The notes beneath the pieces were generated by a model. That model saw only the letters and a program-made list of their open reading frames with translations, had not been told where the DNA came from and made no database searches. A stretch of 64,000 nucleotides of DNA from Candidatus Omnitrophota bacterium (GTDB lineage Bacteria; Omnitrophota; Gorgyraeia; Zapsychrales; Zapsychraceae), in the NCBI GenBank assembly GCA_016212005.1, contig JACRHP010000009.1, positions 6,560 to 70,559 of the forward strand, written 5' to 3'. Both the position numbers and the translations under genes were made by a program. The first letter of the stretch is position 1; the number at the start of each line of letters is the position of its first letter. This document shows positions 8,318-32,398 of the stretch, piece by piece.

Positions 8318-8460
8318 TTTTTCGTAGGAATCCAAAGTCCCCCAACAGGTTGCGTAAGATCAAGCAATCAGCATTGCATTTGACGCTAAGGCGCCTGCTG
8401 TGTTAAAATAATCCCCAATTTATTATCTTTATTATTTGAAAACACCAGAAAGGAAAACCG

Positions 8461-16974: not shown

Positions 16975-17835
16975 ATGGACCGTTATATCGACAAATTCCT
17001 TACCTACCTCGAAGTTGAAAAAAATTATTCCGGGCATACCATCATCAACTACGGGATTGACCTGCGCGAGTTCGCCCGGTTCGCCGCCTCGACCTCGCTT
17101 GAGAAGATCGATTATTTGTTCCTGCGCCGTTTCCTCGCGCATATCCGTACCAAACAATACCTGCCCAGGACGCTGACCCGCAAACTTTCCGCCCTGCGCA
17201 GTTTTTTCAAATTTCTCCACAGGGAGGGACACATCCGCAGCAACCCGGCGGTCCTTTTGATGTCCCCCAAACGCGAAAAACGTTTGCCAAAATTTTTGAC
17301 GGAAGAAGAAGTGACAAAATTTCTGGAGATCCCCCGGGGCGACAACCTCATGGGCAAACGCGACCGGGCGATCCTGGAAACGCTTTACAGCGCCGGTATC
17401 CGCGTCAGCGAGCTCGTTGGACTTAATGTCGAGCACGTCGATTTGATCGGCAATATCGCCAAGGTGTCCGGCAAAGGGAAAAAAGAGCGGCTTGTCCCCC
17501 TGGGGAGCAAGGCGGTCGAGGCGATCAAAGATTATCTGGATAACCGCAAAAAGGATTCTAACACGCTTTTTCTTAATAAAAACGGCACACGGTTATCCTC
17601 GCGCAGTGTAGGCACGATCGTCCATAAATATATCAAGCTGGTCAGCGCGACACAGGATATCTCCCCGCACGTTTTGCGGCACACTTTTGCCACGCACCTG
17701 TTAAACCGCGGGGCGGACCTGCGTTCAGTCCAGGAGTTGCTCGGCCACGTCAACCTTTCCACCACCCAGATCTACACGCATGTCACGACCGACCGCTTGA
17801 AGAAAGTGTATGACCAGGCCCATCCCAGGGCCTAG
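16975..17835 (+). CDS. xerC: Tyrosine recombinase XerC/XerD family
   Basis: Phage-integrase catalytic R...HxxR...Y (LRHTFATHLL, TQIYTHV). Confidence 0.85.
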   Translation: MDRYIDKFLTYLEVEKNYSGHTIINYGIDLREFARFAASTSLEKIDYLFLRRFLAHIRTKQYLPRTLTRKLSALRSFFKFLHREGHIRSNPAVLLMSPKREKRLPKFLTEEEVTKFLEIPRGDNLMGKRDRAILETLYSAGIRVSELVGLNVEHVDLIGNIAKVSGKGKKERLVPLGSKAVEAIKDYLDNRKKDSNTLFLNKNGTRLSSRSVGTIVHKYIKLVSATQDISPHVLRHTFATHLLNRGADLRSVQELLGHVNLSTTQIYTHVTTDRLKKVYDQAHPRA

Positions 17836-17905: not shown

Positions 17906-19165
17906 GTGTTTATCGTTTATGACATCATTTTTAGCGTTCTGGTGTTGCTGTATTTGCCTTATCTTGTCTGCAATGGAAAATGGCATGGCGAGTTCTGGAC
18001 GCGGCTGGGATTGCGGCCGTTGCCCGTTCCCGCGGCCGAAGAGAAAAAAACAATCTGGGTCCACGCGGTCAGCGTCGGCGAAATATTGGCCGTTGTCCCG
18101 CTTGTCCAGGGGTTGCGCGAACGGTTCCCGGGACATGGGCTTGTTGTTTCCACCGTTACCCGGACAGGATACGCTCTGGCCAGGGAGAAATTGCAGATGA
18201 CAGGCACTGTCATTTACGCGCCGGTCGATTTCAGCTGGGCCGTCCGCCGTTATGTCAAGACGCTTAAACCCGTTCTTTATATTTCTGCGGAAACGGAAAT
18301 ATGGCCGAATCTGTACACGTTTTTGCATCGGAGCCGTGTCCTTGTTATCCAGGTCAACGGCCGCATATCGGACCGGGCATTCGCCGGATACAAAAAGGTC
18401 GGTTTTCTGACGCGCCGGGTGCTGGCCTGCGTGTCCGGCTTTTACATGCAAACCGAAGAAGATGCCGGAAGGATTGTCCTGCTGGGGGCGTCCCCGCAAC
18501 GCGTGCGCGTTGTTGGAAATTTGAAATTCGATCAGGCCCAAAGGGAGACATCGTTGAACAAAAAACAACTGGGCTTTGACGACACTGTCCAGTTGCTGGT
18601 TGCCGGGAGCACTTACCCGGGAGAAGAAGAGATCGTCCTTGCGGCATTCCAACAGTTGTCCGGAGAATTCCCGGCGTTGCGCCTGGTTCTCGCTCCGCGC
18701 CACGTGGAAAGGGCCGAAGAAATCGTCCGTCTTGTTCAAAACAAGGGGTTCCAGCCGCGGCGGTTTTCCAGCTTGCCGCAAGACAAGGAGGCCGGCCGCA
18801 CTATTTTGATCGTTGATCGTTTTGGGTACCTGCGCGATATTTACAGTTTGGCCGATTGTGTTTTTATCGGGAAATCTTTGCGCGGCCGCGGCGGGCAGAA
18901 TATGATCGAGCCGTTGTCCTTCGGCAAGCCGACTTTTGTCGGTCCGCATACGGAAAACTTTCGTGATGTTGTGCGGATCTTTGAGAAGACCGGCGCGCTT
19001 ATCCGGGTGGAGGATGGGCCCGGACTGATTGCGCAGGTCCGGCGGGTACTGGCCGATCCGCCGCGATTACCGGTCATTGCTGCCGCCGCTATCGAGGAGA
19101 GCAGGAAACATCAGGGCGCGACGCAAAGGACTTTGGAAATCATTGGAGATATTTTGAAACCATGA
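17906..19165 (+). CDS. waaA: 3-deoxy-D-manno-octulosonic acid (Kdo) transferase
   Basis: IWVHAVSVGE motif; GT30 family. Start is GTG. Confidence 0.85.
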   Translation: MFIVYDIIFSVLVLLYLPYLVCNGKWHGEFWTRLGLRPLPVPAAEEKKTIWVHAVSVGEILAVVPLVQGLRERFPGHGLVVSTVTRTGYALAREKLQMTGTVIYAPVDFSWAVRRYVKTLKPVLYISAETEIWPNLYTFLHRSRVLVIQVNGRISDRAFAGYKKVGFLTRRVLACVSGFYMQTEEDAGRIVLLGASPQRVRVVGNLKFDQAQRETSLNKKQLGFDDTVQLLVAGSTYPGEEEIVLAAFQQLSGEFPALRLVLAPRHVERAEEIVRLVQNKGFQPRRFSSLPQDKEAGRTILIVDRFGYLRDIYSLADCVFIGKSLRGRGGQNMIEPLSFGKPTFVGPHTENFRDVVRIFEKTGALIRVEDGPGLIAQVRRVLADPPRLPVIAAAAIEESRKHQGATQRTLEIIGDILKP

Positions 19166-20241
19166 GGCAGTTTTTTTACAATGTGGTAACGGACCGGGCG
19201 GACAGCATCGGGATAAAAATGCTTCAGGCCATTTTATTGCCGCTGTCGTATGTTTACCGGTCCGGCGTCCAGTTGACGGCCGCCTTGTATCGAAAGGGGA
19301 TCCTAAAACAATCTCATCTGCCCCGGCCGGTCATCAGTGTCGGGAATATTACGGCGGGAGGGACGGGGAAGACCCCTTTGGTCGCCAGGGTCGCCCAAAT
19401 TTGCCAGGGGTTCGGGATGAAGCCGGTCATTTTAACCCGTGGATATATGGGGCGGGGGATAGGAAGTGGCTGTGAGAAAAGCGACGAGGCGGCCATGCTG
19501 GGAAAAATACTGCCGGACGTCCCTGTTTTGCCCGGGGCCGACCGGATCAAAAGTGCCCAGGCATTTCTGGGAGGGGATCAGGCCGATATTTTTATCCTGG
19601 ACGACGGTTTTCAGCAATGGCGCCTGGCCCGGGACATGGACATCGTGGTCATCGACGCCACGGACCCGTGGGGAAACGGCAAAACTCTTCCCCGCGGAAT
19701 TTTGCGGGAACCGCTCGCCGCGCTGCGCAGGGCCGACTGGATCATCCTTACCAAGACAGATTCAAGCCGGGCGAGAACCGCGCACCTCCGCCAGCGTTTC
19801 AAAGAAATTGGATGTACGCAGCCCGTCCTGGAATCTGTCCACCAGCCGGTTTCTGTCGAGGATTTAGATTCGGGAGGAAATTATCCGCCTGAAATATTGG
19901 CCGGCCGCAAAGTTTGCGTTCTATGCGGATTGGGCGCGCCGGAGATCTTTAGTGAGACCTTGACGCGTCTGGGGGCGGAAATTTCCCGCGCATTTAACTT
20001 TACCGATCATCACGTCTATAGTAAAACGGATATTACGTCGATCGCGCAGTATTGCAAAGCGAACCATGTCAGGGCCGTTATTACCACACAAAAAGACGCC
20101 GTTAAACTGACCGGTTGGCGTGAAGAGTTACGCGAAGGCGTGGACGTTCAGCTCTTCGCGCTTAATATCGAACTTGTCCTGGCTAATGGAAAAGAAAAAA
20201 ATGCCTTCGTTCAGCGAATCGCTGATTTTTCACAGCGTTAA
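19162..20241 (+). CDS. lpxK: Tetraacyldisaccharide 4'-kinase
   Basis: VISVGNITAGGTGKTP. Confidence 0.88.
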   Translation: MRQFFYNVVTDRADSIGIKMLQAILLPLSYVYRSGVQLTAALYRKGILKQSHLPRPVISVGNITAGGTGKTPLVARVAQICQGFGMKPVILTRGYMGRGIGSGCEKSDEAAMLGKILPDVPVLPGADRIKSAQAFLGGDQADIFILDDGFQQWRLARDMDIVVIDATDPWGNGKTLPRGILREPLAALRRADWIILTKTDSSRARTAHLRQRFKEIGCTQPVLESVHQPVSVEDLDSGGNYPPEILAGRKVCVLCGLGAPEIFSETLTRLGAEISRAFNFTDHHVYSKTDITSIAQYCKANHVRAVITTQKDAVKLTGWREELREGVDVQLFALNIELVLANGKEKNAFVQRIADFSQR

Positions 20242-22174
20242 CTGGTTGGGTGGTTTTATGCGGTTGCTGCCGCTTCAGGCGGCGCTATGGATCAGCCGTC
20301 TTGTCGGCACGCTGGCCTATTATTTTGATATCCGCCACAAGACAATCGCCTACGCCAATATCAAGGCCGTCTTCGCCGATTCCAGATCTCCCGCTGAAAT
20401 CCGGCGCATGACCAAAGAACTATTTCGGAATTACGCGCAGAATTTTATCGATTTATTCCGCCTGCCGCTGGTAACTCCCCAGAATTTCCAGGACCTGATC
20501 ACCGTTGAAGGTATCGAGAATCTTTCCCTTGGCCTTGGCCAGGGGAAAGGCGCGATCATGCTGGCCATGCACTTCGGCAGCTGGGAACTGGCCAACCTTT
20601 CCTGCGCCATGCTCAAATTGCCTTATAAAGTTATTGTCAAACCGCAGACGCGGTATACCCGTCTGGAAGAGCTTTTAAATTCCTACCGTTCCTGCGGCGG
20701 TTACGTTGTCCTTAACCGGGGGATGGGGACCCGGGACTTCGTGCGGAGCTTGCAGAGCAATGAGGTCATCGGGATGGTGGTCGACCAAGGCGGGCGCGAC
20801 GGGGTCCTCGTACCGTTTTTTGGACGCAACGCTTCTATGTCGGTAGGGGCGATCCGCATGGGGCTTAAATGGGGAGTCCCGATTTGTTTTAGCGTCATCC
20901 ATCGTCAGCCGGGCGGCCGGCACAAAATGATCGTCCATAAACCCCTGGAACTGGTCAACACGGGGCGTACGGAGGAAGACATCGTTGCCAATCTTTCCCA
21001 AATCACGAAGATCATGGAAGATTATATCCGGCGTTATCCCTCGGAGTATATGTGGTTTTATAAAATCTGGAAATATTCCGACCAGACCTCCATCACAATC
21101 TTGAGCGACGAGAAAACAGGACATCTGCGCCAGTCCCAGGCCGTGGCCCGGTTATTGCAAAAAGCCCTGGCCGAACGTGAAATCCGTTCCAGCGTCCAGG
21201 AAGTCCCGGTCCGGTTTAAAGGCGAATTCCACCGGAACCTTTTCGCCGTTTTGAGCCTGTGTTTACCGCCGTTTTTCCATCAAGGGCATCTGGAATATCT
21301 GAAATGGTTTTTAACGGGTGAATCTTACGGCCGGGCAATCCGGGTCAAGTCGGATTTTATTGTCTCCTGCGGTTCATCCGTCGCGGCGGTTAACTATTTT
21401 CTGGCAAAGGACCATGGCGCCAAAAGTGTCGTGGTCCTCAAGCCCGGGATCCTGGGATACAGGAAATTCAACCTGGTGATATTGCCGCGACATGAAATGC
21501 CGCGTCAGGTCCCGGCGGGGCCGCGTTTGGTGGAAACGTTGGGGGCCCCGAACCTGATCACCCCGGAATATCAGCAGGAACAATCGCAGGGACTGCTCAA
21601 GCGATATTCACATTTAAAGAATAACCTGAAGATCAAGATCGGCCTTTTTATCGGCGGCGATTCGAAGGATATCTTTTTAAGCGAACACCTGTTGAAAGTT
21701 TTGGTCCACCAGCTCACCGAGGTGGCGCAGGAGATCAGCGCGGACATCCTGGTGACAACCTCACGGCGTACTCCGGCGGCCGTTGAAGAATTACTGCAAA
21801 AAAGGCTGCGCAAACATCCGCGGTGTCCGCTCCTCGTTATCGCCAATGAAGATGACGTGCCCGAAGCGGCAGGAGGCATGATGGGGTTGTCGGACATCCT
21901 GGTCGTTTCCGGAGACAGCATCTCGATGATCTCGGAAGCGGCCAGTTCCGGGAAGAAGACCATTGTCTTCCTGCCGGAACTGCGCCAGAAAGAGCAGCGG
22001 AAATCGAACAAACATCTGGCATTCATTGAACAGTTAGGGGCGGAAGGTTATCTTTTTGCCAGCAGCATCAAGGACATCGGCCGCGCCGTTTATGATATCG
22101 CCAAGGGCAAGATCCAGACCAAGCCGCTCAACGATAACCTGGTGATACTCGATGCCCTCCGGAAAATTATTTAA
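20201..22174 (+). CDS. Fusion of an LpxL/HtrB-family lipid A acyltransferase (N-terminal) with an ELM1/DUF1022-like domain (C-terminal)
   Basis: N-terminal half shows LpxL-like transmembrane anchor and acyltransferase motifs. The C-terminal roughly 380 aa resemble the Mito_fiss_Elm1 family. The start is uncertain (ATGs at 20186, 20201, 20258) and the first two overlap lpxK. Confidence 0.6.
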   Translation: MPSFSESLIFHSVNWLGGFMRLLPLQAALWISRLVGTLAYYFDIRHKTIAYANIKAVFADSRSPAEIRRMTKELFRNYAQNFIDLFRLPLVTPQNFQDLITVEGIENLSLGLGQGKGAIMLAMHFGSWELANLSCAMLKLPYKVIVKPQTRYTRLEELLNSYRSCGGYVVLNRGMGTRDFVRSLQSNEVIGMVVDQGGRDGVLVPFFGRNASMSVGAIRMGLKWGVPICFSVIHRQPGGRHKMIVHKPLELVNTGRTEEDIVANLSQITKIMEDYIRRYPSEYMWFYKIWKYSDQTSITILSDEKTGHLRQSQAVARLLQKALAEREIRSSVQEVPVRFKGEFHRNLFAVLSLCLPPFFHQGHLEYLKWFLTGESYGRAIRVKSDFIVSCGSSVAAVNYFLAKDHGAKSVVVLKPGILGYRKFNLVILPRHEMPRQVPAGPRLVETLGAPNLITPEYQQEQSQGLLKRYSHLKNNLKIKIGLFIGGDSKDIFLSEHLLKVLVHQLTEVAQEISADILVTTSRRTPAAVEELLQKRLRKHPRCPLLVIANEDDVPEAAGGMMGLSDILVVSGDSISMISEAASSGKKTIVFLPELRQKEQRKSNKHLAFIEQLGAEGYLFASSIKDIGRAVYDIAKGKIQTKPLNDNLVILDALRKII

Positions 22175-22224
22175 AATTTATCGCGTGGAGCCCCACGGGT
22201 TAACACCCGTGGCCCCTCTATTTT
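22162..22224. repeat. 63-bp direct repeat, copy 1, containing a terminator-like hairpin (ccacggg-ttaaca-cccgtgg)
   Basis: Nearly identical to 23469-23531 (2 mismatches). Includes the last codons and stop of the upstream gene. Confidence 0.8.
22193..22224 (+). terminator. Candidate intrinsic terminator (7-bp GC stem followed by ...ctatttt)
   Basis: Hairpin followed by a T-rich tail, seen directly. Confidence 0.4.
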
Positions 22225-22332
22225 CCGGTTCCGCGTTGTTCCGGATGGCTTGAGGGATAGTGATTCGGCGGTGGTTTGTGAGGAACAGATTGTTTGAAAA
22301 ATATATATTTTATGGAGTATAGTTCCTTATAA

Positions 22333-22361
22333 TTGACATATTATATGGAATATGCTAATAT
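22333..22361 (+). promoter_or_regulatory. Near-consensus sigma70 promoter TTGACA-N17-TAATAT placed 7 nt before the ATG at 22368 (leaderless?)
   Basis: Hexamers and spacer length read directly. Confidence 0.5.
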
Positions 22362-22367
22362 TATCCT

Positions 22368-23495
22368 ATGAAAATACCTCGGTTTTATCAGGATTTAACT
22401 CCCTACCTTAAGCCAAACAATGTCCTGGTCATTTATGGGCCGCGGCAGGTCGGCAAGACCACGCTGATTCAGGATTTTCTGGCCACCGTTCCGGGGCGCT
22501 ATAAGCTGGATTCAGGAGATAACATCCGGATACAGACCGTTCTGGGGTCGCAGGATTTTGACGTGATCAAAGAATACGCGCAAGGATATTCTTTGATCGT
22601 TATCGATGAAGCCCAAAGAATTCCCAACGTCGGCCAGGGATTGAAAATTCTGGTGGATCAGCTTCCCGGTATTCAGGTGATCGCGACGGGTTCTTCCTCT
22701 TTTGAACTGGCCGGGCAAGTGGGGGAACCGCTCACCGGGAGAAAAACTACGCTGACATTGTATCCGGTATCGCAGTTGGAATTGCGGGGCCTTTATAACA
22801 CTTATGAATTGAAAAACAACCTGGAGCATTGGCTTGTCTTCGGGGGGTATCCCGAAATCACCGCGGTAGGATCAAAAAGTGAAAAGATCCGCTTGCTGGA
22901 AGAATTAGTGCAATCGTATTTATTCAAGGATATCCTGGAGCTGGAACAGGTCAAGAGTTCCAGGACCCTTATGGACCTGTTACGCCTGTTGGCATTCCAG
23001 GTGGGCAAGGAAGTCTCGTTAAACGAACTGGGACAGCAGGTCGGCGTGGACACCAAGACGGTGGCGCGCTATCTGGACCTCTTTGAAAAGGCGTTTGTCG
23101 TTTACAATCTGCGCGGCTTTAGCCGCAACCTGCGGTCCGAGATCGTGAGGAAAGGCAAGTATTATTTTTATGACAACGGCATCCGCAACGGCGTGATCTC
23201 AAATTTTAACGAGATGGGACTCCGTAACGACGCCGGAGAATTGTGGGAGAATTTCCTGTTTATGGAACGGCTCAAGAAACGGTCTTATCAGAATATATAT
23301 GCCAACAGTTATTTCTGGCGGACGTGGGAACGCCAGGAAATCGATTTGATCGAAGAGCGGGAGGGCAAATTGTTCGCATTTGAATTCAAGTGGGGCAAAG
23401 ACAAAACCAAACTGCCGAAGCAATGGGCCGCGGCCTATCCCGAAGCGTTGTTTGAGGTCATTGACAGAGAAAATTATTTAGAATTTATCGCGTGA
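22368..23495 (+). CDS. AAA+ ATPase with DUF4143 (COG1373-like)
   Basis: Walker A GPRQVGKTT, and Walker B IVIDEAQ. Confidence 0.75.
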   Translation: MKIPRFYQDLTPYLKPNNVLVIYGPRQVGKTTLIQDFLATVPGRYKLDSGDNIRIQTVLGSQDFDVIKEYAQGYSLIVIDEAQRIPNVGQGLKILVDQLPGIQVIATGSSSFELAGQVGEPLTGRKTTLTLYPVSQLELRGLYNTYELKNNLEHWLVFGGYPEITAVGSKSEKIRLLEELVQSYLFKDILELEQVKSSRTLMDLLRLLAFQVGKEVSLNELGQQVGVDTKTVARYLDLFEKAFVVYNLRGFSRNLRSEIVRKGKYYFYDNGIRNGVISNFNEMGLRNDAGELWENFLFMERLKKRSYQNIYANSYFWRTWERQEIDLIEEREGKLFAFEFKWGKDKTKLPKQWAAAYPEALFEVIDRENYLEFIA

Positions 23496-23531
23496 AGCCC
23501 CACGGGTTAACACCCGTGGCCCCTCTATTTT
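23469..23531. repeat. 63-bp direct repeat, copy 2
   Basis: See copy 1. It supplies the last four codons (EFIA*) of the AAA ATPase gene in a different frame. Confidence 0.8.
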
Positions 23532-23644
23532 TAGGACTCCGTCCGTGGGGCGGGATCCTGGCCAGAACGCCTTCATTCACGCCTTTACAGACGTGGCGTT
23601 CTGGCGTCAGGGTAGATTTTTCGGGCCCGGCAAAGATTGCGCGT

Positions 23645-23710
23645 CATTCTTGCCGTCCACGGGACCCACGGCGCCAAGAAAGAGCGGCCGGGTACAACCC
23701 GATCCTGAAT
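23645..23710. repeat. Imperfect direct repeat A (core tgccgtccacgggacccacggcgccaag) upstream of the MNT/HEPN pair
   Basis: About 75-80% identical to 24746-24805. The core is partially palindromic. Confidence 0.55.
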
Positions 23711-23770
23711 TTGACAATCGTGCTGTAATATGTTACAGTAACAACTGTAAATAACGCAGAGCAACAGAAT

Positions 23771-24313
23771 ATGATCAACTTGCGCTCCCAAATCACACAA
23801 AAGGTCCTGGGGTATTTCTACCTCCACGAAGACGCAGAAATGTACATCAATGAAACGGCCCGCCGGCTTGGTCTTGACAGTGGTAATCTCACCAGAAAAT
23901 TCGAGGAGTTGGAAAGCCAGGGGATCCTCAAGAGCCGGTGGAAGGGGGCCCAGCGGTATTATTCGCTTGATAAGGAATTCTCGCTTTATCAGGAATATAA
24001 AAAAATTATCAAAAAAACCGTTGGTTTTGAAGAAATCTTGCGCGCTTCTTTAAAATCACTTGCAGGCATTCAACAAGCTGTTGTCTTCGGCTCTTACGCG
24101 GCTGATAAAATGGATCCCAAAAGCGATATTGATGTATTGGTCATCGGAGATCATGACACGGTGGAACTGCAAAAAGTAATTGCCCGGATCCAGAGATCCG
24201 TTGACCGTGAAATAAATTGTATCACTATGACTGGCAAAGAATACCGGGAAAAACAAAAAAAGGACCCGTTTTTAAGATCCTTAAAAAGTAAACCCCGTCT
24301 TGACCTCTTATGA
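23771..24313 (+). CDS. wHTH-fused minimal nucleotidyltransferase (MNT, Pol-beta superfamily)
   Basis: GSYAADKMDPKSDIDVLVIGD motif with an N-terminal winged-helix region. Confidence 0.8.
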   Translation: MINLRSQITQKVLGYFYLHEDAEMYINETARRLGLDSGNLTRKFEELESQGILKSRWKGAQRYYSLDKEFSLYQEYKKIIKKTVGFEEILRASLKSLAGIQQAVVFGSYAADKMDPKSDIDVLVIGDHDTVELQKVIARIQRSVDREINCITMTGKEYREKQKKDPFLRSLKSKPRLDLL

Positions 24314-24732
24314 CCCGGTTTGAGAAAGAATATTTCCGCCCGTTTTCTTTCAGCGGCAAAGAGATTGACCGTTATTTCCAGAACGCTTTGCGCGATCTTA
24401 AAATTGCCCAGACGGATCCCTACACGGAAGTGCGGTTTACGTATTGTTATCAGGCCTTGATCAAATCCGGCATCGCCTTGATCGCCAAAGTCGGCCAGGT
24501 CAAAGTCAGAAGCGTGGCCGGGCACCATGTCCAGGTATTGACGAAAATGAGCAATTTGTTGAACAACCCGGATATTTTGACCATCGGCAATGCCATGCGC
24601 ATGAAACGTAATCTGGACCTTTACAGCGGCGGCGAATTCATCAGCAAGAAAGAAACCGGCGATTATATCCGTTTTACAAAGCAGGTTATCAATCAAACGG
24701 AGAAAATTATCAAGGCAGGGAAGAAGGAGTAA
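24310..24732 (+). CDS. HEPN domain protein, partner of the upstream MNT
   Basis: ATGA overlap with the MNT gene; 140 aa, helical, with an R..H-type motif. Confidence 0.7.
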   Translation: MTRFEKEYFRPFSFSGKEIDRYFQNALRDLKIAQTDPYTEVRFTYCYQALIKSGIALIAKVGQVKVRSVAGHHVQVLTKMSNLLNNPDILTIGNAMRMKRNLDLYSGGEFISKKETGDYIRFTKQVINQTEKIIKAGKKE

Positions 24733-24745
24733 ACATCGCGCGGTG

Positions 24746-24805
24746 TTTCTGCCATCCACGGGATCCGCAGCGCCAAAAGAGAATGGCTGGATATTATTGC
24801 GGGGG
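24746..24805. repeat. Imperfect direct repeat B (tgccatccacgggatccgcagcgccaaaag)
   Basis: Pairs with 23645-23710. Confidence 0.55.
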
Positions 24806-24914
24806 GAGTAAAGGACGTTGCCGCCGTTAATGAAGGATTGACAGAGGAGAATCATGCCGAGAATATTCGATAACATTGAACAGCCGCTTTTGCCGTCGTT
24901 GAAAGGTTTTTATT

Positions 24915-25133
24915 ATGCCTCCTGAAGCATTCTCCAGAGTTTTGATCGACGAAGCCCTGAAATCCTCCGGCTGGGATCTGGCAAAGAATGCTCATTTCGA
25001 ACTTGCCGGATCGCAAGAGGCTCGATGATATTGTTTTCGACACGATCGGCCTCACCGCCGCCGAACGCAAAGAAGTCTACTGGTCTGTCTGTGAACTCGT
25101 CAAAAACCGCCTCGACCAAGCAGGAAGTGTGTG
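24915..25133 (+). pseudogene. Internally deleted remnant of a restriction enzyme gene (HsdR/Res-like N-terminus joined out of frame to a type IIG-like C-terminal motif)
   Basis: N-terminus reads IDEALKSSGWD. A frameshifted continuation reads LDDIVFDTIGLTAAERKEVYWSV, the typical C-terminal motif of type IIG/MTase enzymes. Confidence 0.4.
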
Positions 25134-25147
25134 AAGCGAGTAATATT

Positions 25148-26083
25148 ATGAAGGAACAGAAACCCAAAAAACGGCACCATTATATACCTGTCTTTTATTT
25201 GAACGGTTTTACGGATAAAAACGGATGTCTATATGTGTACGATAAAGACACTAAGCCGGTGTTTGAATCCTCTCCCGAGGGTATCGCATACGAGAACCAC
25301 TATTTTTCTTTTATGACGCCACATGGCGAAAGGGATTCGGAGACCGTGGAAAATGCTATCATGTTATGGGAGGGAGAATTTGCAAGAATAGTAAAAAAAA
25401 TCCATGATCATGAGGATTTGACGGATGATGATTATATGGTTTTTTCTTTTTTCGTTGCATCTATGATGATAAGAGTTCCCAACATGAGGGATAACATACG
25501 GAAAGCGACCGGCGAGACGATAAAACGTATGAATGTCTTCATGTCGTCCCACAAAGAAAATTTTGGACGAATGATAAAGAAGTATGAAAGCAATACAGGA
25601 AGGCAAATTGGCATGGATGTTGAAGAACTGCGTCAATGGATGAATAATCCGGACAATTATGACATGACCGTTGACAAGGAATATGCTACTGGAATGGCTT
25701 TATGCTTGCTTGAAGATCTTGCGAAGGGGTTTTTAAATATGAAATGGGCTTTTTTAAAGGCAACGGACGACTATAAATATGTGACAGGTGACAATCCGTT
25801 GCGATACATTGACCCGACACATAACCCGCGCTCATTTTACGGAGTAGGGCTCGCCAACGAAAACATAGAAGTTTCCTTGCCCTTATCCAAAGAGATTTGT
25901 GCTTTCGGTTCATGGAAATATAGAGAAGGTCATATACAAGCCAATAGTCAGCATGTAAAACATTTAAATAAAATGACCGTTAGCGCATCGGTAAAGTTTG
26001 TATTCGCCGATACCAAGTCAGAGATTATTGACCAATTTGTAAAAAAGTATAAAGATAGCCATCCTGTAATGGTCGTTGGTTAA
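25148..26083 (+). CDS. DUF4238 family protein
   Basis: HHYIPVFYLNGF N-terminal signature in an AT-rich gene. The track ORF extends upstream, but the ATG at 25148 fits the family N-terminus. Confidence 0.65.
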   Translation: MKEQKPKKRHHYIPVFYLNGFTDKNGCLYVYDKDTKPVFESSPEGIAYENHYFSFMTPHGERDSETVENAIMLWEGEFARIVKKIHDHEDLTDDDYMVFSFFVASMMIRVPNMRDNIRKATGETIKRMNVFMSSHKENFGRMIKKYESNTGRQIGMDVEELRQWMNNPDNYDMTVDKEYATGMALCLLEDLAKGFLNMKWAFLKATDDYKYVTGDNPLRYIDPTHNPRSFYGVGLANENIEVSLPLSKEICAFGSWKYREGHIQANSQHVKHLNKMTVSASVKFVFADTKSEIIDQFVKKYKDSHPVMVVG

Positions 26084-26121
26084 GGTAAAGGCGTAATTCG
26101 GGATACAAATGCAGGATGCAG

Positions 26122-26274
26122 GTGACAGTCACTCCGGCGGGGACAGACATGGCGAGCCTCGTCGCTCGTGTGACCGAAATCCGCGCCATGCAAGCCGACC
26201 AATCCGCCAGCCGCAAGCGTCTGGACGACCTGTTTCAGTCAATGTTACACCGTGCTTTTGAGGGGGAGTTATGA
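26122..26274 (+). pseudogene. hsdS: C-terminal remnant of a type I restriction specificity subunit (HsdS)
   Basis: ...SRKRLDDLFQSMLHRAFEGEL* is the conserved HsdS C-terminal helix, with no upstream target-recognition domain. Confidence 0.55.
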
Positions 26275-26434
26275 CGAAGGAGGAATTAAGGTTGCGTCAC
26301 ACGTCCCCCGACGTGTCCTATAAAAAGGTTATGCAGCGAAAATTTCAAGAGCTTCAGCCGGTGAGTTTAATGGATTTGGGAGTGATTTAGATTGAACCTA
26401 ATGTCTATTTTAAATTAGCCTTGGTGAGGATAAT

Positions 26435-28450
26435 ATGATAAAGGCGTTTGTCGGTCACAGTTTTGACTCGGAAGACGAGTCAATAATTACTGCATTCAAA
26501 AAGATGTTTAATAGCTTAAGAACGAGCATGGCTTTTGAGTGGGAAGATGCTGAAGCTACACAGATTAAACCATTGTCAAAAAAGGTTCCGCAAAAAATGG
26601 CGGATAAGAATTTGTTTATTGGTATTTTTACACGAAAACACATAGAACTTGAACTGAAGCAATTAATTCCGTCCAAGCCTTGGAATAAGAATAAATATGT
26701 TATTAGAAGGGCCGATTGTGCTTATGGAACATCGTACTGGATTACTCAGGAAAGTGGATATGCTATAGCTCAGGGCATGGTAACTCTTTTTTTAATTGAA
26801 AAGGGCGTGAGAGAATTAAAGGGATTGCACGCCGATATGGAACACATCTATTTTGAGCGAGGCAAAGAAAGCGAATGTTTTGTTAAGCTAAACGAAGCTT
26901 TAGGTCAGTTTCTTAGCGAGAGCAAAATCAATAACGGGAAAAAAGGGAGCAATATTCCTCCCAAACAATCAGAAAAAGATATTGCTACGGCGGCGAGCGA
27001 AAATATTGCTGTGCAAGAGGCCACAGAAGCTGATGAAGCGCAAGAAGTAAAAAAGCATAAAGAAAAAAAGGATGATAAGTATTATTTTAGGGAAATGTAT
27101 TTCGCGCTTCTTGAGAAAGAAAATGCAAAATTCGAGCAACTAAAAAATGAGGTTTTTGAGAAATATAAAGCCGACGAAGATGGCACGATAGAGTGGCAAG
27201 CTAAAGTATTATCTCTGGAAAGCCTTTTGACGCAGAAGGATGTTTTAAATGACTTGAAGGAGCTTCAAAAAAAGAAGCCTGAAAATGCATTGATAGCTTA
27301 CTATATTGGCGAAGAATATGAAAAATATAAGAATTATGAACAAGCAATCGACGAATACCTAAAATCTGCAAGACTGGAAAAACAAGTTGGATCTAAATTG
27401 CATAGGGTTAGCCTGGCCGCCCATGCCTATGTAAAAAATGGTCAAAAAAACGAAGCGATAAATATTTTATTAAAAGAATTACACGAGGATTCGCCTGATG
27501 ACGAAAAGCGTTTGATATATGGATATTTAGCTGATATTGCGAAGGCCATGGAGGACAATGAATTATTTACAGTTTTCGCTGAAAAAGCATTGGCGATAAA
27601 TCCGAGTAATAGCTCGTTAAGGTTCAGTCTTGCTTATAAGTATTCCAATATGGACAAAGATGTGTTGGCTTTATATCACTACAATATTTTAGCCGCTAAC
27701 AGCCCAGATTCATCGAATTGTAATAACCTCGGTGTAGCATATGCCAGTTTGGGAATGCCTAGCAAGGCGGTAGAATCATATATCAGGGCAAGTGAACTAG
27801 GCGCGACAATATCAAGAGCTAATCTTGCGCAAAAGCTACTTAACGAAGGATTCATTGATTATGCGAACAATCAGTTAAAAGAGGCTATGAAATCAGAGGA
27901 TTATGAAAAAGATAATGTGGGAAGGGCATTGCTAAGGATAGATTCAATTCGCGAAGAAGAGAACAAAAAAGAAAAAGAGGCATTAGAGGGTATTGCGGGG
28001 GAAAGGCGTTTTAAGCAAGATTATGCAGATGCATATTCAATTGGTTTTATTGTTAGCGAAGCATTAAGCGGTGAATGGAATAGCAAGCATGGCAAAATTG
28101 AAATACATTTAGAATCCGGGAACAATCTATATGGTAAAAAGGAAGAAACGGTCGAGGGAAACAATTTGTATCTGGCTGCGATGTTAGCCGGATCGTCCGT
28201 TGGCACAACACCAGAAAAGCGAATCGTTAAATTTATAAGAACATTCGAAGGCAAAATAATTAAAAACAGGACTTTTGAATATAAACTTAAGATTGAAAGA
28301 CAGCCACCGTATAGCACTCTATTAGCACAGGATCTTACGATAACCGAATTTTCTGGCTACGGGATCATAAGCAAAGAGATGAATTTGATAAAGGTAATGG
28401 AGCTTGACAAGGATAAAAAGCAAACTTTCTTAGAAATGATAAAAACATAA
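26435..28450 (+). CDS. Large TIR-like domain + coiled-coil + TPR-repeat protein (candidate defense effector)
   Basis: N-terminus has FVGHSFDSEDE and SYWITQESGYA motifs (TIR-like S.W...E). The middle has several TPR-like repeats (AYYIGEEYEKYKNYEQAIDEY; LGVAYASLGMPSKAVESY). No Walker A motif is visible. The gene is AT-rich. Confidence 0.55.
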   Translation: MIKAFVGHSFDSEDESIITAFKKMFNSLRTSMAFEWEDAEATQIKPLSKKVPQKMADKNLFIGIFTRKHIELELKQLIPSKPWNKNKYVIRRADCAYGTSYWITQESGYAIAQGMVTLFLIEKGVRELKGLHADMEHIYFERGKESECFVKLNEALGQFLSESKINNGKKGSNIPPKQSEKDIATAASENIAVQEATEADEAQEVKKHKEKKDDKYYFREMYFALLEKENAKFEQLKNEVFEKYKADEDGTIEWQAKVLSLESLLTQKDVLNDLKELQKKKPENALIAYYIGEEYEKYKNYEQAIDEYLKSARLEKQVGSKLHRVSLAAHAYVKNGQKNEAINILLKELHEDSPDDEKRLIYGYLADIAKAMEDNELFTVFAEKALAINPSNSSLRFSLAYKYSNMDKDVLALYHYNILAANSPDSSNCNNLGVAYASLGMPSKAVESYIRASELGATISRANLAQKLLNEGFIDYANNQLKEAMKSEDYEKDNVGRALLRIDSIREEENKKEKEALEGIAGERRFKQDYADAYSIGFIVSEALSGEWNSKHGKIEIHLESGNNLYGKKEETVEGNNLYLAAMLAGSSVGTTPEKRIVKFIRTFEGKIIKNRTFEYKLKIERQPPYSTLLAQDLTITEFSGYGIISKEMNLIKVMELDKDKKQTFLEMIKT

Positions 28451-28574
28451 GCCGGTTCTGATAATAAACGTCAGGTACAAATTTACAAATTTAGGGGACA
28501 GGTAAGGTATGTTGATGGACAAATTCCCAGACACATTCCATGCCGGAAATCAAGGAAATCAACGTGCCAGGCAC

Positions 28575-28650
28575 TTTTGGACACCTGCTTACGAACGTCC
28601 GCGGCGCGGCCGCGATCTTTCTTGACACGCTTTTAGGGGAAGAGCTTGCC
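28575..28650. repeat. 76-bp direct repeat, copy 1, upstream of the first Bro-N gene
   Basis: About 90% identical to 29621-29697. Confidence 0.7.
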
Positions 28651-28651
28651 G

Positions 28652-28720
28652 GGGGGCAGGCCTGCCTGCCCTGTCTGCCCTGACTGCCGTCAGGCAGGCG
28701 ACAGGCAAGCGGCAGGCAGG
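28652..28720. other. Long imperfect GC-rich palindrome (cctgcctgccctgtctgccctgac...gtcaggcagg...caggcagg)
   Basis: Inverted repeat seen directly, immediately upstream of the Bro-N gene. Confidence 0.5.
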
Positions 28721-28771
28721 TTGAAGGCCGCGAAGAGGCCGCAGGGCGAGGGAAAGGAAGAGTTTAGTCTT

Positions 28772-29605
28772 ATGAAACAATCACAATCAATCGCGCTTTT
28801 TCATCAGAACAAGGTCCGCCGCCATTGGGACGAGGGCAGGGAGCTCTGGTATTTTTCGATTGTGGATGTGGTGCAAATATTGACCGGCTCCACGATCCCA
28901 AGACGATATTGGAGCGATCTTAAAACAAAGCTTCAAGCGGAAGGAAGTGAAGTGTACGAGAAAATCGTACAGTTGAAAATGACCGCTCCGGACGGGAAAC
29001 AAAGAGAAACAGACTGTTTATCCACTGAAGATCTGCTCCGCGTCATCCAGTCCATCCCATCCCCCAAAGCCGAGCCTTTTAAGTTGTGGCTGGCGAAAGT
29101 GGGCTATGAGCGCATCGAAGAAACCGAGGACCCGGAGCTCGCGATGGAACGGGCGATGAAAACCTACCTCAAGAAAGGGTATACCAAAGAATGGATCAAC
29201 CAGCGGCTTAAAAGCATTGAAGTGCGCAAGGAATTGACGGATGAGTGGCAGGAACGGGGCATGAAGGAGGGTTTGGAATACGCGATATTGACCGACGAAA
29301 TCACGAAAGCATGGGCTGACAGGAGCGTCAAAGATTATAAGAAGCTCAAAGGCCTGAAGAAGCAAAACCTGCGCGACAATATGACCAACCTTGAGCTGGT
29401 TTTGAATATGCTGGCTGAGGCCTCCACGGCTGAGATTTCCAGGAAGAAACAGCCGAAAGGTTTGCCGGCCAATAAACAGGTTGCGCGTCAGGGCGGCGCG
29501 GCGGCGGGAAAAGCGCGGGCCGAGATCGAAAAACAAACCGGCGAAAGCGTCATCACCGGCGCGCATGCCCGCGCGCTTCCGGTTGAGAAAACAAAGAAAA
29601 ATTAA
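28772..29605 (+). CDS. Bro-N domain protein (phage antirepressor/BRO-like)
   Basis: WYFSIVDVVQIL...LKMTAPDGKQRETDCLSTEDLLRVIQSIPSPKAEPFKLWLAKV matches the Bro-N pattern. The track ORF includes the GC palindrome; the ATG at 28772 is preferred. Confidence 0.7.
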   Translation: MKQSQSIALFHQNKVRRHWDEGRELWYFSIVDVVQILTGSTIPRRYWSDLKTKLQAEGSEVYEKIVQLKMTAPDGKQRETDCLSTEDLLRVIQSIPSPKAEPFKLWLAKVGYERIEETEDPELAMERAMKTYLKKGYTKEWINQRLKSIEVRKELTDEWQERGMKEGLEYAILTDEITKAWADRSVKDYKKLKGLKKQNLRDNMTNLELVLNMLAEASTAEISRKKQPKGLPANKQVARQGGAAAGKARAEIEKQTGESVITGAHARALPVEKTKKN

Positions 29606-29620
29606 CGAAAATTAAAGGCG

Positions 29621-29697
29621 CTTTGGGACACCTGTTCACGAACGTTCGCGGCGCGGCCGCGCTCTTTCCTGACATGCTTTTGGGAGAAGAGCTTGCC
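29621..29697. repeat. 76-bp direct repeat, copy 2
   Basis: See 28575-28650. Confidence 0.7.
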
Positions 29698-29873
29698 AAC
29701 ATGAGAAGAATAGGTCCCCCGGGCGGGGATTGGCAAGCCGCCCTGAAGATCGCCCTATTCCTTCGCGCAAGCGCTGGAAAATTTCTTGACTACCATACAT
29801 ATGTGTTGTACAAAAAATCAATCCCCCAATTCCCCCTTGTTAACCATTTTTAAAAAAGAAAGGGGAAATATCC

Positions 29874-30170
29874 ATGTCCACTGAAACGTACTTAACCAAA
29901 ATTGCAGTTTTCAAAGGAAGAGAGGTCAGGAGGGTTCTTATTGAGGGGAAATGGTGGTTTTCCGTGGTTGATGTTGTTTCCGTATTGACGGACAGTGACA
30001 ATCCGCGCGATTATTGGTACAAGATGAAGATCAGAGAAAAAGACGAGGCGGATGTTCAACTGTCGACAATTTGTCGACAGTTCAAATTGACCGCCCCGGA
30101 TGGCAAGTTGAGAAAGACGAACTGTGCCAACATGAGAAGAATAGGCGCCAGTCACCCGGGCAAGTTTTGA
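29874..30170 (+). CDS. Truncated Bro-N paralog (98 aa)
   Basis: N-terminal two-thirds parallels the upstream Bro-N. Homology ends at a 20-bp repeat (gccaacatgagaagaatagg) that is also present at 29695-29714. Confidence 0.55.
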   Translation: MSTETYLTKIAVFKGREVRRVLIEGKWWFSVVDVVSVLTDSDNPRDYWYKMKIREKDEADVQLSTICRQFKLTAPDGKLRKTNCANMRRIGASHPGKF

Positions 30171-30295
30171 GGCCAAAAGGCGAAAAGAAGGGGCGGCGGT
30201 ATGGGTTTTAAGATATCGGACATTTATTGGACAAATAAATCCGTGACAGGGACTAATTTTTGAAGGCCGCGAAGGCCACATAAGTTTGCAAGCCA

Positions 30296-32398
30296 ATGAA
30301 AATTTTACAAATATTGCCTGAATTAAATGTCGGCGGGGTGGAGACCGGGACGGTCGACCTCGCCGGTTATCTGGCGCGGCAGGGACACCAGTCCATCGTC
30401 GTTTCCAACGGCGGAGAGCTTGTCGCCCGGCTTGAGGCCTCGGGCACGAAGCATTACACGCTGCCGGTGCACAAGAAATCTTTATGGACGATGTTCTGGT
30501 CTATCAAGGCGTTGCACAAGATTATCCTTGAGGAAAACGTCGACGTGGTCCATGCCCGCTCGCGCGTGCCCGCCTGGATCGCGTATTTCGCCTGCCGCAA
30601 GACAAAGGCGGCGCTGGTGACGACCTGCCACGGTTATTACGGCAGCCGGGTCTTCAGCCAGGTCATGGGCTGGCCGAAACTGGTCATCGTCCCCAGTGAA
30701 GTCATCGGCCGCCACATGATCGAGCATTTTCGTGTTTCTCCCAGCGGCATCCGGTATATCCCGCGCAGTGTCGATCTCGAACGATTCCGTGTGCCACGAG
30801 CCGATACGGCAGGCAAGTCCTTTTTTACTGTCGTTATTGTCGGGCGCCTGACGCCGCTCAAAGGGCACACCTTTTTTTTGCGGTCCATGGCGAAGGTCAT
30901 CCGCGCGATGCCCAATATCCGCGTCTGGATTGTCGGCGACGCGCCTGCCGGCAAACAGGCGTATAAAGAAGAGCTGCAGCTCTTGATCAAGAGGCTGGGC
31001 ATCCAGGGGCAAGTCGAGTTCCTGGGCAACCGCCGCGACGTGCCGCAGCTGCTGGCGCAGGCGGACGTGCTTGTCCTTTCAACCATCACCCAGGAGGCTT
31101 TCGGCCGGGTGATCCTCGAGGCCCAGGCCGTGGGCGTGCCGGTCGTGGCGACCAAAGTCGGAGGGGTCGTGGATATTATTGAGGACGGCCGCACCGGCCT
31201 CTTGGTCCCGGCGAAAGATATCGACGCCATGGCCAAGGCTGTGACGCGTGTTCTGAACGATAAAAAAACCGCCGCGCAAATGGCTGTGGCTGCGCGGGAA
31301 AAACTCGAGAGAGAATTCACGCTGGAACAGATGGTGTCCCGGACGATCCGGGTCTACGAGGAACTGATGCAGTCCATCAATATCCTGGTCATCAAGATCA
31401 GTTCGATGGGGGACGTGGTCCTCGTCACGGCGGCGTTAAAAGCGCTGCGCGCCCAATATCCTCACGCGAAAATCTATTGTCTGGTGGGCAAAGATTCCAG
31501 AAAAGTCTTGCAAAACTGCCCCCATCTCGACGGCATCATTGTGGATGACCCCAAGAATAAATATAAAGGGTGGTGGCGGACGTTTCTTCTTTCGCATAAG
31601 CTGCGTAAATACCGTTTTGATAAAATCGTGGATTTTCAGAACAACCGCCGCAGCCATCTTTTGGCCTTTTTGAGTTTCTCCAGGGAAAGTTACGGTTACG
31701 ATAACGGGAAATGGGGTAATCTGCTGACGCATCCTTTGAAAATATACCGCAATGATATCCCCGCCGTTGAACATCAATTTCAGCTGTTGAAGGAAATGGG
31801 CATCGCCATGCCGCCGGACGCCGCCCTGGAGCTGTGGCCGTCGGCCAAAGACCGGCAGTATATCCAGGAGTTGCTGGAATCCGAATGGCTGGGCAACATC
31901 CCGCGCATGGTCGGGATCAACATCGCCGCGTCGGAAAAATGGCAGACGAAAAACTGGCCGGTGGAACATATCGCGCGTTTATGCGATCTGCTGGCGGCCA
32001 GGAACATCCGCGTCCTTGTTACCGGCATGGAAAAGGACAGGCCTGTTGTCCAGCGGCTTATGGAAAACACAAGATCCAAACCGGCTGTTTTTGTCGGGCG
32101 CACGGACATCCTGCAACTGGCCGCCCTGATTGGACGCTGCAGCGTCTATATCACGCCGGATTCGGCGCCGCTTCACGTGGCGGCCGCCATGAAAACACCG
32201 CTAGTCGCCTTCTTCGGCCCGACGGATTCGCGCAGACACCGGCCGCCGGCGCGGCATATGGTTGTCCTCGAAAAGAAACTTGCCTGCGCGCCCTGTTACA
32301 GCCCGCGGTGTCTTGTCATGACTCACGCCTGTATGCGTGAGATAACTCCCGATGAAGTCCTCCAGAAGGTTGAAGAACTGATGGGCGCAAAAGTATGA
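30296..32398 (+). CDS. Bifunctional glycosyltransferase: GT4 domain (N-terminal) fused to a GT9 heptosyltransferase-like domain (C-terminal)
   Basis: N-terminal MKILQILPELNVGGVETGTVDLA...EAFGRVILEAQAVGVPVVAT (GT4). C-terminal INILVIKISSMGDVVLVTAALKAL...APLHVAAAMKTPLVAFFGPTD (GT9). Confidence 0.75.
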   Translation: MKILQILPELNVGGVETGTVDLAGYLARQGHQSIVVSNGGELVARLEASGTKHYTLPVHKKSLWTMFWSIKALHKIILEENVDVVHARSRVPAWIAYFACRKTKAALVTTCHGYYGSRVFSQVMGWPKLVIVPSEVIGRHMIEHFRVSPSGIRYIPRSVDLERFRVPRADTAGKSFFTVVIVGRLTPLKGHTFFLRSMAKVIRAMPNIRVWIVGDAPAGKQAYKEELQLLIKRLGIQGQVEFLGNRRDVPQLLAQADVLVLSTITQEAFGRVILEAQAVGVPVVATKVGGVVDIIEDGRTGLLVPAKDIDAMAKAVTRVLNDKKTAAQMAVAAREKLEREFTLEQMVSRTIRVYEELMQSINILVIKISSMGDVVLVTAALKALRAQYPHAKIYCLVGKDSRKVLQNCPHLDGIIVDDPKNKYKGWWRTFLLSHKLRKYRFDKIVDFQNNRRSHLLAFLSFSRESYGYDNGKWGNLLTHPLKIYRNDIPAVEHQFQLLKEMGIAMPPDAALELWPSAKDRQYIQELLESEWLGNIPRMVGINIAASEKWQTKNWPVEHIARLCDLLAARNIRVLVTGMEKDRPVVQRLMENTRSKPAVFVGRTDILQLAALIGRCSVYITPDSAPLHVAAAMKTPLVAFFGPTDSRRHRPPARHMVVLEKKLACAPCYSPRCLVMTHACMREITPDEVLQKVEELMGAKV

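Follow-up and report, generated by a model that had tools for sequence, protein, structure and literature searches.

How does one short sequence come to lie across the stop codons of two unrelated genes? The question is posed by a locus from a Candidatus Omnitrophota bacterium, situated in the 64-kb stretch of DNA analyzed here (hereafter, the window). Specifically, a 63-bp direct repeat brackets the gene encoding an AAA_14–DUF4143 ATPase. Copy 1 overlaps the end of the upstream gene, lpxL-ELM1, and copy 2 overlaps the end of the ATPase gene itself. The initial annotation, made from the DNA letters, viewed this arrangement as the footprint of a site-specific insertion with duplication of the attachment site, or of a cassette-type integration, with the repeat supplying stop codons to both genes. 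Here, we arrive at a different answer. The 63-bp repeat is likely the tail of the ATPase gene present twice: one occurrence ends the intact gene, and the other is a remnant joined to the lpxL stop. The locus as a whole is, in our judgment, probably a recombination scar at a variable hotspot for defense genes, at which a first copy of the ATPase cassette lost its body and a second copy is intact. A near-perfect repeat over two stop codons resembles an attachment site, and recognizing it here as a probable gene stump corrects a misreading.

The Repeat and Its Two Copies

As the initial annotation had it, the copies are near-perfect: they are identical at 61 of 63 positions and are spaced 1307 nt apart. 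The two mismatches fall at repeat position 13 (22174 A in copy 1 versus 23481 G in copy 2) and repeat position 27 (22188 G versus 23495 A). The possibility had been raised that the 63-mer is a high-copy repeat. Just two copies exist within the window: the 37-nt and 20-nt cores of the repeat are found at these two sites only, even with three mismatches tolerated, and shuffled sequences give none. Copy 2 consists of 27 nt of ATPase coding end, followed by a 31-nt hairpin, followed by the 5 nt ATTTT, which are the beginning of the native 3' flank of the ATPase gene. The DNA between the copies has a GC content of 0.48, consistent with its earlier description as AT-richer; lpxL stands at 0.53 and the glycosyltransferase gene downstream at 0.57. 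Coordinates of all features are collected in Table 1.

One concern is that the repeat was created by the metagenome assembler, which could have strung together two strain variants or a collapsed repeat. The window derives from a metagenome-assembled genome, the region is strain-variable, and it is precisely at the repeat that the k=31 Logan assembly breaks. However, the copies differ at two positions, each tied to its own left flank, and the hairpin-to-spacer junction recurs in an independent assembly, Logan contig L001 (SRR12113407). Moreover, contigs of the same project are named k141, a length exceeding the 63-nt repeat, so the junctions should be supported by reads. We consider an assembly artifact very improbable.

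Table 1. Features at and around the repeat, in window coordinates
Feature	Position	Strand	Basis or remark
lpxL-ELM1 fusion gene (lipid A acyltransferase plus ELM1/GtrOC1 domain)	20186..22174	+	Pfam PF03279 and PF06258; start as in P0001/P0241
Repeat copy 1	22162..22224	+	Overlaps lpxL-ELM1 stop
Probable 74-nt vestige of ATPase 3' end	22162..22235	+	Comparison with ATPase ends and tails of L115, L195, L197, and L199
Microhomology GAAAATTATTTA within vestige	22162..22173	+	12 nt
Putative ex-coding segment AAATTTATCGCGTGG within vestige	22174..22188	+	E to K; stop TGA to TGG
31-nt hairpin element AGCCCCACGGGTTAACACCCGTGGCCCCTCT	22189..22219; second copy 23496..23526	+	Indel relative to L115 and L195–L199; fold
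Native ATPase 3' flank ATTTTCCGGTTCCGCG in vestige	22220..22235	+	Tails of relatives
51-nt spacer between vestige and cassette	22236..22286	+	No match in fetched loci except L001 (same DNA)
11-nt AGATTGTTTGA, probable vestige of lpxL-ELM1 stop region	22287..22297	+	10/11 match to AGATTATTTGA; position
Cassette promoter region	22298..22367	+	Block conserved upstream of all close cassette relatives
AAA_14 + DUF4143 ATPase, 375 aa, phage-defense candidate PDC-S01	22368..23495	+	Pfam; PADLOC; identical to NCBI protein MBI5149259.1
Repeat copy 2	23469..23531	+	Intact ATPase end ENYLEFIA*, hairpin, ATTTT; native flank severed here
Block with HTH-nucleotidyltransferase gene (23771-24313) and HEPN-like partner (24310-24732), PDC-M05A/B	23532..24819	+	Pfam, PADLOC
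Scars of probable ancestral layout	24820..25134	+	MPRIFDNI... 5' relic (24820-24897), MPPEAFSRVLIDEAL... 5' relic (24916-25017), and C-terminal stump
Accessory island, 8,121 nt, GC 0.45	22175..30295	+	Empty sites in L002 and L202/L203; GC; PADLOC

Whose Sequence Is the Repeat?

The two gene ends that meet in the repeat can each be assigned to their owner. The native C terminus of LpxL-ELM1 is ...LDALRKII*, with the stop codon at 22172-22174. Copy 1 spans the G of a CGG codon and then AAA ATT ATT TAA, which is the RKII* end of lpxL-ELM1, so copy 1 does hold the last codons of that gene (..KII*), as annotated. A search with LpxL-ELM1 returns Omnitrophota proteins, nearly all of which, among the 60 homologs inspected, end in RK(I/V)I*. 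Given this conservation, the lpxL reading of the first 13 nt of the repeat is native. In L202/L203, the natural lpxL ending reads CGGAAAAT(C/T)ATTTAA.

The coding part of copy 2 is GAA AAT TAT TTA GAA TTT ATC GCG TGA, i.e., ENYLEFIA*. It comprises eight codons plus the stop, not the last four codons (EFIA*) originally counted. The ATPase has thousands of relatives. The best 120, which extend to identities as low as 66%, all terminate in (R/Q)ENYL(E/D)F(I/V)x or a motif close to it. Thus, the ATPase reading of the first 27 nt is native as well. The 12-mer GAAAATTATTTA is the sole sequence common to the two gene ends, and it is read one frame apart: cGG AAA ATT ATT TAa in lpxL versus GAA AAT TAT TTA in the ATPase gene. 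The initial annotation correctly saw that the two genes use different frames of the repeat. Its notion that the repeat supplies their stop codons does not hold, because the left 27 nt belong to the ATPase gene itself, as its conserved coding end, which is present also in contexts that lack the repeat. Since both gene ends are native and only the 12-mer is shared, the repeat is best understood as ATPase sequence rather than as a neutral site that lends stop codons.

The flanks of the two copies point the same way. The sequence after copy 1 begins CCGGTTCC, whereas copy 2 and its flank read ATTTT|TAGGACTCC. The continuation of the native ATPase flank, CCGGTTCCGCG, is found after copy 1 only and is broken after copy 2. 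Because the native flank runs on only past copy 1, copy 1 plus the next 11 nt constitute a 74-nt stump of the ATPase 3' end. Relative to copy 2 and to a related cassette (L198), copy 1 carries two derived changes, both in former coding sequence: GAA to AAA (E to K) and TGA to TGG. From these comparisons, the stump appears, with reasonable confidence, to have been welded to the native lpxL-ELM1 stop via the 12-nt microhomology GAAAATTATTTA.

The stump is followed by the spacer and then by the 11-nt AGATTGTTTGA. The latter is placed beside the promoter block of the cassette, exactly where two relatives (L115/L200) have a real lpxL end and two others (L195/L196) have a dragged lpxL fragment. From left to right, then, the window presents the real lpxL end, a stump of an ATPase end, a vestige of an lpxL end, and the real ATPase gene. 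This order is the pattern of two successive modules, each an lpxL end plus an ATPase, the first without its body. Within the interval 22225-22297, only the last 11 nt align to lpxL ends. The idea that all 73 nt are a decayed lpxL 3' end was rejected, with p = 0.05-0.2 in comparisons with four lpxL ends and 2000 shuffles.

The Hairpin Inside the Repeat

The 31-nt hairpin is missing from every other ATPase cassette that we fetched. Because the relatives lack it between stop codon and flank, the hairpin is a lineage-specific insertion. MAFFT misplaced this 31-nt indel, and we placed it by eye from the sequences. The stem has 8 bp (CCACGGGU/ACCCGUGG) and a UAAC loop, and a U-run begins 9 nt past the stem. 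With its flanks, the element folds at about -19 kcal/mol (z -4.1), and it passes a terminator pattern scan solely via an alternative 6-pair stem. Thus, of the terminator that had been ascribed to the repeat, a terminator-like hairpin exists, but it is weak and noncanonical, and it may weakly terminate lpxL transcription. An Rfam search (E up to 1) and a tRNA scan return nothing relevant.

The 20-nt core of the hairpin, CCACGGGTTAACACCCGTGG (22193-22212 and 23500-23519), has a wide distribution. We searched species-representative genomes, a set in which the source genome of the window is absent. Among these GTDB representatives, 122 exact copies occur in 112 stretches (L003-L114), compared with approximately 1 expected by chance. 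Several rumen Thermoguttaceae have many copies per genome. Other carriers are Anaerohalosphaeraceae, Pirellulales, Kerfeldbacteria, Nitrospiraceae, Acidobacteriota, Chlamydiia, Victivallaceae, and Ignavibacteriaceae. The flanks of the core are lineage-specific, and in a subset the core is followed by CTAC (GTAG on the opposite strand) and alternates with a second hairpin. The element resembles repetitive extragenic palindromes (REPs) and the mosaic elements built from them (BIMEs): it is a GC-rich hairpin just past a stop codon, its core is found in multiple genomes, and a subset is accompanied by CTAC/GTAG. Unlike those palindromes, it has two copies in 64 kb, both explicable by one duplication, and no GTAG lies beside the window copies. 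Nor was a transposase of the RAYT type seen, though no search aimed at one was made.

Could the entire 63-mer, then, be a REP-like element or a miniature mobile terminator that entered the DNA behind each gene in a separate event? The abundance of the core across many phyla would fit, as would a locus in which the hairpin directly follows a stop codon (L089, TGA|AGCA...) and the Omnitrophota locus L008, whose hairpin shares the GGAGCC left flank of copy 1. Yet only the 20-31-nt hairpin recurs in this manner, with different flanks in each lineage, and the remaining 32 nt of the repeat are ATPase coding sequence and ATPase flank. Furthermore, a 25-nt probe comprising the hairpin with its own flanks has no match in JGI metagenome contigs, the 20-nt core has none in viral contigs, and the window holds only the two copies. 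Independent insertion of a mobile 63-mer is hardly credible.

One Cassette in Many Contexts

The site after lpxL-ELM1 exists in empty form. In L002, whose LpxL-ELM1 is 92% identical to that of the window, and in L202/L203 (74%), the lpxL stop is followed by 11-12 nt and then by the gene for a 700-aa GT4/GT9 glycosyltransferase, which in the window lies at 30296-32398. These empty sites reveal that positions 22175-30295, bounded by the lpxL-ELM1 stop and that gene, are an 8.1-kb insertion in a waaA-lpxK-lpxL-glycosyltransferase operon. They also bear out the view that an accessory island has its left edge at the repeat.

The ATPase cassette itself is not confined to this site. At 89-95% protein identity we fetched it from L115, L116, and L195-L201, and it resides in at least five other genomic contexts. 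In three loci from Hainich groundwater (L115, L200, and L201), the cassette comes straight after the lpxL-ELM1 stop of another lineage (...AAGATTATTTGA|AGAAAATATATATTTCATGG). There, nucleotide identity to the window is 93.8% for the L115 cassette but just 77% for the lpxL next to it. In L195 and L196, a MoxR-type gene precedes the cassette, whose promoter block still bears a fragment of approximately 90 nt from an lpxL-ELM1 3' end (DIAKGKIQTRPLDDNPAILDALRKII*). L116, L117, L197, L198, and L199 present yet other upstream contexts. Downstream, the ATPase stop (GCGTAG) in L115, L195, L196, L197, and L200 is directly followed by ATTTTCCGG(GTTCGGCGC), a pattern of ATTT(T/C)CCGG, and in L199 by the close variant ATTTCCCGGGCCCGGCG. 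In a comparison of eight contexts, similarity tapers off gradually beyond about -75 on the upstream side and halts 9-18 nt past the stop codon, and among these contexts there are no transposon-like sharp ends, terminal inverted repeats, or target-site duplications. No relatives of the ATPase were found in viral contigs. The comparisons support the interpretation, anticipated by the initial annotation, that the ATPase gene, together with a promoter of its own, forms a cassette exchanged horizontally.

These contexts bear directly on the proposal that a trans-acting recombinase inserted the cassette site-specifically at the lpxL-ELM1 3' end, in which case the repeats would be attL and attR. The locus does share features with 3'-end islands that duplicate their att site and with integron cassettes: a unit of one gene, located at a gene 3' end, is enclosed by near-perfect direct repeats, one of which overlaps the upstream stop, and the island genes are co-oriented. 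In addition, the cassette follows lpxL in two lineages, and a tyrosine recombinase gene lies 4.3 kb upstream (16975-17835). However, the left 27 nt of the presumed att site are the conserved coding end of the cassette everywhere, and L115, L200, and L201 occupy the lpxL site with neither copy 1, duplication, nor hairpin. Of the 50 nt that follow the lpxL stop, none are present at the empty sites, and the native flank runs on past copy 1. The recombinase upstream belongs to the syntenic core genes and is found beside empty sites as well, and no integrase, tRNA, attC-like site, or Rfam family was found in the island. The integrase search comprised Pfam and PADLOC scans of the main plus-strand open reading frames (ORFs) of the island and its three longest minus-strand ORFs. 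Integration in the integron sense fares no better: the 63-mer has, by eye, no GTTRRRY-type R''/R' core sites and an 8-bp hairpin only, there is no IntI, the cassette is not promoterless, and the other repeats in the island are unrelated in sequence to the 63-mer. We judge insertion by an integrase improbable. A check suggested at the outset was to look for a single-copy empty site of the 1.3-kb cassette alone. Exact-protein look-ups of LpxL-ELM1 (with two start codons) and of the nucleotidyltransferase yielded no match, and thus no such sister-strain empty site was found.

Other loci also provide observations on repeats. In L195, an 89-nt direct repeat (7060-7148 and 8553-8641; 98% identical) is made up of the ATPase gene's final 69 nt and a 20-nt tail. 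It brackets one gene with Schlafen/AlbA_2, HATPase_c_4, and HTH domains (7172-8551), and its second copy is a gene stump. Its structure is like that in the window, with different cargo. In L180, a repeat of up to 174 nt (89% identical) occurs at three places (3708-3881, 5148-5321, and 5973-6033) and includes the 5' end of a SNF2-helicase gene (MKQLALDGGPET...). These repeats bracket a DUF4143 ATPase gene and then a PIN-domain gene, which looks like successive single-gene insertions, each duplicating the junction. Finally, the ATPase of the L200 contig (ERZ1292646, 1523 nt; protein P0123) is labeled "Patescibacteria group bacterium" at NCBI, yet the contig holds an lpxL-ELM1 3' end in the L115 layout. 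Patescibacteria are not expected to make lipid A, and the contig is therefore probably mis-binned.

A Possible History of the Locus

How could the observed order have arisen? We propose three steps. First, a cassette would have come to lie directly after lpxL, as in L115. Second, another cassette would have arrived, its left side carrying the last nucleotides of an lpxL gene, as in L195. Third, the body of the first cassette would have been deleted between two copies of the 12-mer GAAAATTATTTA, with the upstream part of that cassette lost. The junction would be the product of microhomology-mediated illegitimate recombination, and lpxL would be left with a stop codon (TAA here; TAG with the copy 2 variant).

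Microhomology-mediated and homology-facilitated illegitimate recombination are described for naturally transformable bacteria. Analogous to those events, the window junction sits exactly at a 12-nt identity between unrelated genes, gene stumps remain, and foreign segments bring pieces of former neighbors with them, namely the lpxL fragment in L195 and the 11-nt vestige in the window. The difference is that here we infer the mechanism, as well as the order of events, only from scars. Other features of the island show the same style of history: full and truncated PDC-S13 genes, relics of deleted genes, and a 63-nt repeat of 73% identity at the nucleotidyltransferase–HEPN pair. In-situ tandem duplication was considered as the origin of the two modules and rejected, as the two tails are 97% identical, whereas divergence between the lpxL-like vestige and the real lpxL end is far too great.

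Several points weigh against this history. We found no genome with two intact tandem cassettes after lpxL, and the proposed intermediate is hypothetical. Both copies hold the same hairpin, which indicates one recent source, and a circle or tandem fits this as well as two arrivals do. No origin was identified for the 51-nt spacer among the fetched loci. The lpxL-like vestige is just 11 nt; when the spacer was aligned locally to lpxL ends without constraint, p was approximately 0.05-0.2, so the vestige draws its weight from precisely where it lies. Last, the window is a metagenome-assembled contig.

In an equivalent variant of the proposed history, the deletion would precede the arrival of a 1307-bp circle, which would re-enter by homologous recombination through the tail. 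That variant is a Campbell-type alternative, which differs from the three-step history in the order of events only. Specifically, a 1307-bp circle consisting of tail, spacer, promoter, and ATPase gene would have recombined via its tail with a pre-existing ATPase-tail vestige after lpxL. The 63-bp repeats would be the products of that single crossover, and the cassette could exit likewise. Where copy 1 passes into the spacer (tail, then CCGGTTCCGCG), the native ATPase flank continues, as the closed junction of a circle predicts. The independent contig L001, corresponding to window positions 22195-23531, is 1337 nt long, i.e., 1307 + 30, with identical 30-nt ends, the form that a circle takes in a k=31 assembly. 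The L195 repeat of ATPase-end sequence around a different single gene is also in line with this idea. However, a linear locus would be just as likely to produce the ends of L001, since 36 identical nt are common to the copies, more than k-1, and short contigs from close relatives (L199 and L201) have no terminal overlap. Moreover, the earlier microhomology deletion is still required to make the target vestige. We regard the Campbell-type order of events as unlikely.

Going beyond the single locus, one may speculate that single defense genes are exchanged without a dedicated recombinase, by excision of a circle via a duplicated gene end and re-entry at shared tails through short-homology recombination. 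The L195 and L180 repeats hint at such recombinase-free exchange, which on the whole we think doubtful. If it occurs, conserved gene tails, for example, the very common PDC-S01 ATPase tail, would be portable landing pads in these groundwater bacteria, and the 63-bp repeat of the window, the 89-bp repeat of L195, and the 174-bp repeat of L180 would be products of such a cycle. The 63-bp repeat of the window could now be a substrate for RecA-type deletion of the cassette, which would leave lpxL intact.

Placed among known systems, the locus resembles the variable defense hotspots found between core genes. Like them, it holds 8.1 kb of low-GC defense candidates (PDC-S01, PDC-M05, DUF4238, and PDC-S13) together with relics like those of restriction-modification systems, lies between conserved LPS (lipopolysaccharide) genes, and is empty in close relatives and otherwise filled in another lineage. 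Unlike them, the island is inside an LPS core-biosynthesis operon of an uncultivated Omnitrophota, shows no visible integrase or mobile-element backbone, and contains candidate systems only. The event is thus of an ordinary kind, well resolved, in an unusual organism, and it introduces no new kind of mobile element. The movement of PDC-S01 between uncultivated Omnitrophota lineages is documented base by base, as a promoter-plus-gene unit that drags pieces of former neighbors. The junction after lpxL-ELM1 in the LPS operon emerges as a polymorphic landing place for defense candidates. Gene stumps such as these can serve annotation pipelines as useful markers of past gene content.

The ATPase and Its Promoter

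The cargo of the cassette is a clear member of PDC-S01. The ATPase matches the PADLOC profile PDLC04789 at full length (E 1.8e-146; residues 6-374 on profile positions 6-373 of 375), and PF13173 and PF13635 each score above their cut-offs. PDC-S01 ranks as the fourth most frequent prokaryotic defense candidate, an ATPase fused to a PD-(D/E)XK domain; it is unvalidated, and most such candidates still await validation (PMC12988326). DUF4143 is counted among the PD-(D/E)XK families (PMC3424549). Among solved structures, we found none that is related in sequence to the ATPase.

The consensus promoter noted initially, TTGACA-N17-TAATAT next to the ATG, is present, with the -35 element at 22333-22338, the -10 element at 22356-22361, and the ATG 6 nt beyond the latter. 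Given that only 6 nt separate the -10 element from the ATG, the mRNA is probably leaderless, and the gene is probably expressed from this promoter of its own. The -35 element sits in a near-perfect inverted repeat, TTCCTTATAAT (22323-22333) and ATTATATGGAA (22340-22350). The promoter is conserved across contexts (L115 and L195-L201), and no Shine-Dalgarno sequence precedes the ATG. Together, these features suggest a leaderless, operator-controlled gene.

The Rest of the Island

All genes of the island are on the plus strand, and all are PADLOC defense candidates or relics. The nucleotidyltransferase/HEPN-like pair is PDC-M05A/B, the gene that follows is a DUF4238 candidate, 28646-29605 is PDC-S13, and 29874-30170 is a truncated second PDC-S13. 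Immediately downstream of the PDC-M05 block, pieces of an older layout are preserved. Window positions 24820-24897 match L195 positions 8641-8718 (88%), which are the DNA directly after the ATPase tail there, and positions 24916-25017 match the beginning of the gene next downstream of the cassette in L115 and L200 (95-96%). As the ancestral downstream flank is displaced to 24820, the block at 23532-24819 was inserted later, right after copy 2.

The relics at this place are the first 17 codons of the MPRIFDNI... gene (as in L195) and the first approximately 34 codons of a MPPEAFSRVLIDEALKSSGWDL... gene (as in L115/L200), the latter joined to a short C-terminal stump. The island holds several internally deleted genes. 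Another relic is a small ORF at 26116-26274 that ends in ...LFQSMLHRAFEGEL; this ending presumably resembles those of type I specificity subunits.

Within 17906-33486, the island splits the waaA-lpxK-lpxL/ELM1-glycosyltransferase operon, which is contiguous in L002 and L202. Transcription of the glycosyltransferase genes downstream must now either pass through the island or start inside it.

Further direct repeats accompany the other defense candidates. An 82-nt repeat (88%; 28569-28650 and 29616-29697) corresponds to the homologous upstream regions of the two PDC-S13 copies, and a 31-nt repeat (90%; 29685-29714 and 30115-30145) also accompanies this Bro-N pair. The PDC-S13 genes are a tandem pair of paralogs, one of them cut down. 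Finally, the 63-nt repeat around the nucleotidyltransferase/HEPN-like pair lies at 23632-23694 and 24731-24793, and its second copy starts at the stop codon of the second gene. It has the same layout as the ATPase repeat, with a tail before and after, but is older.

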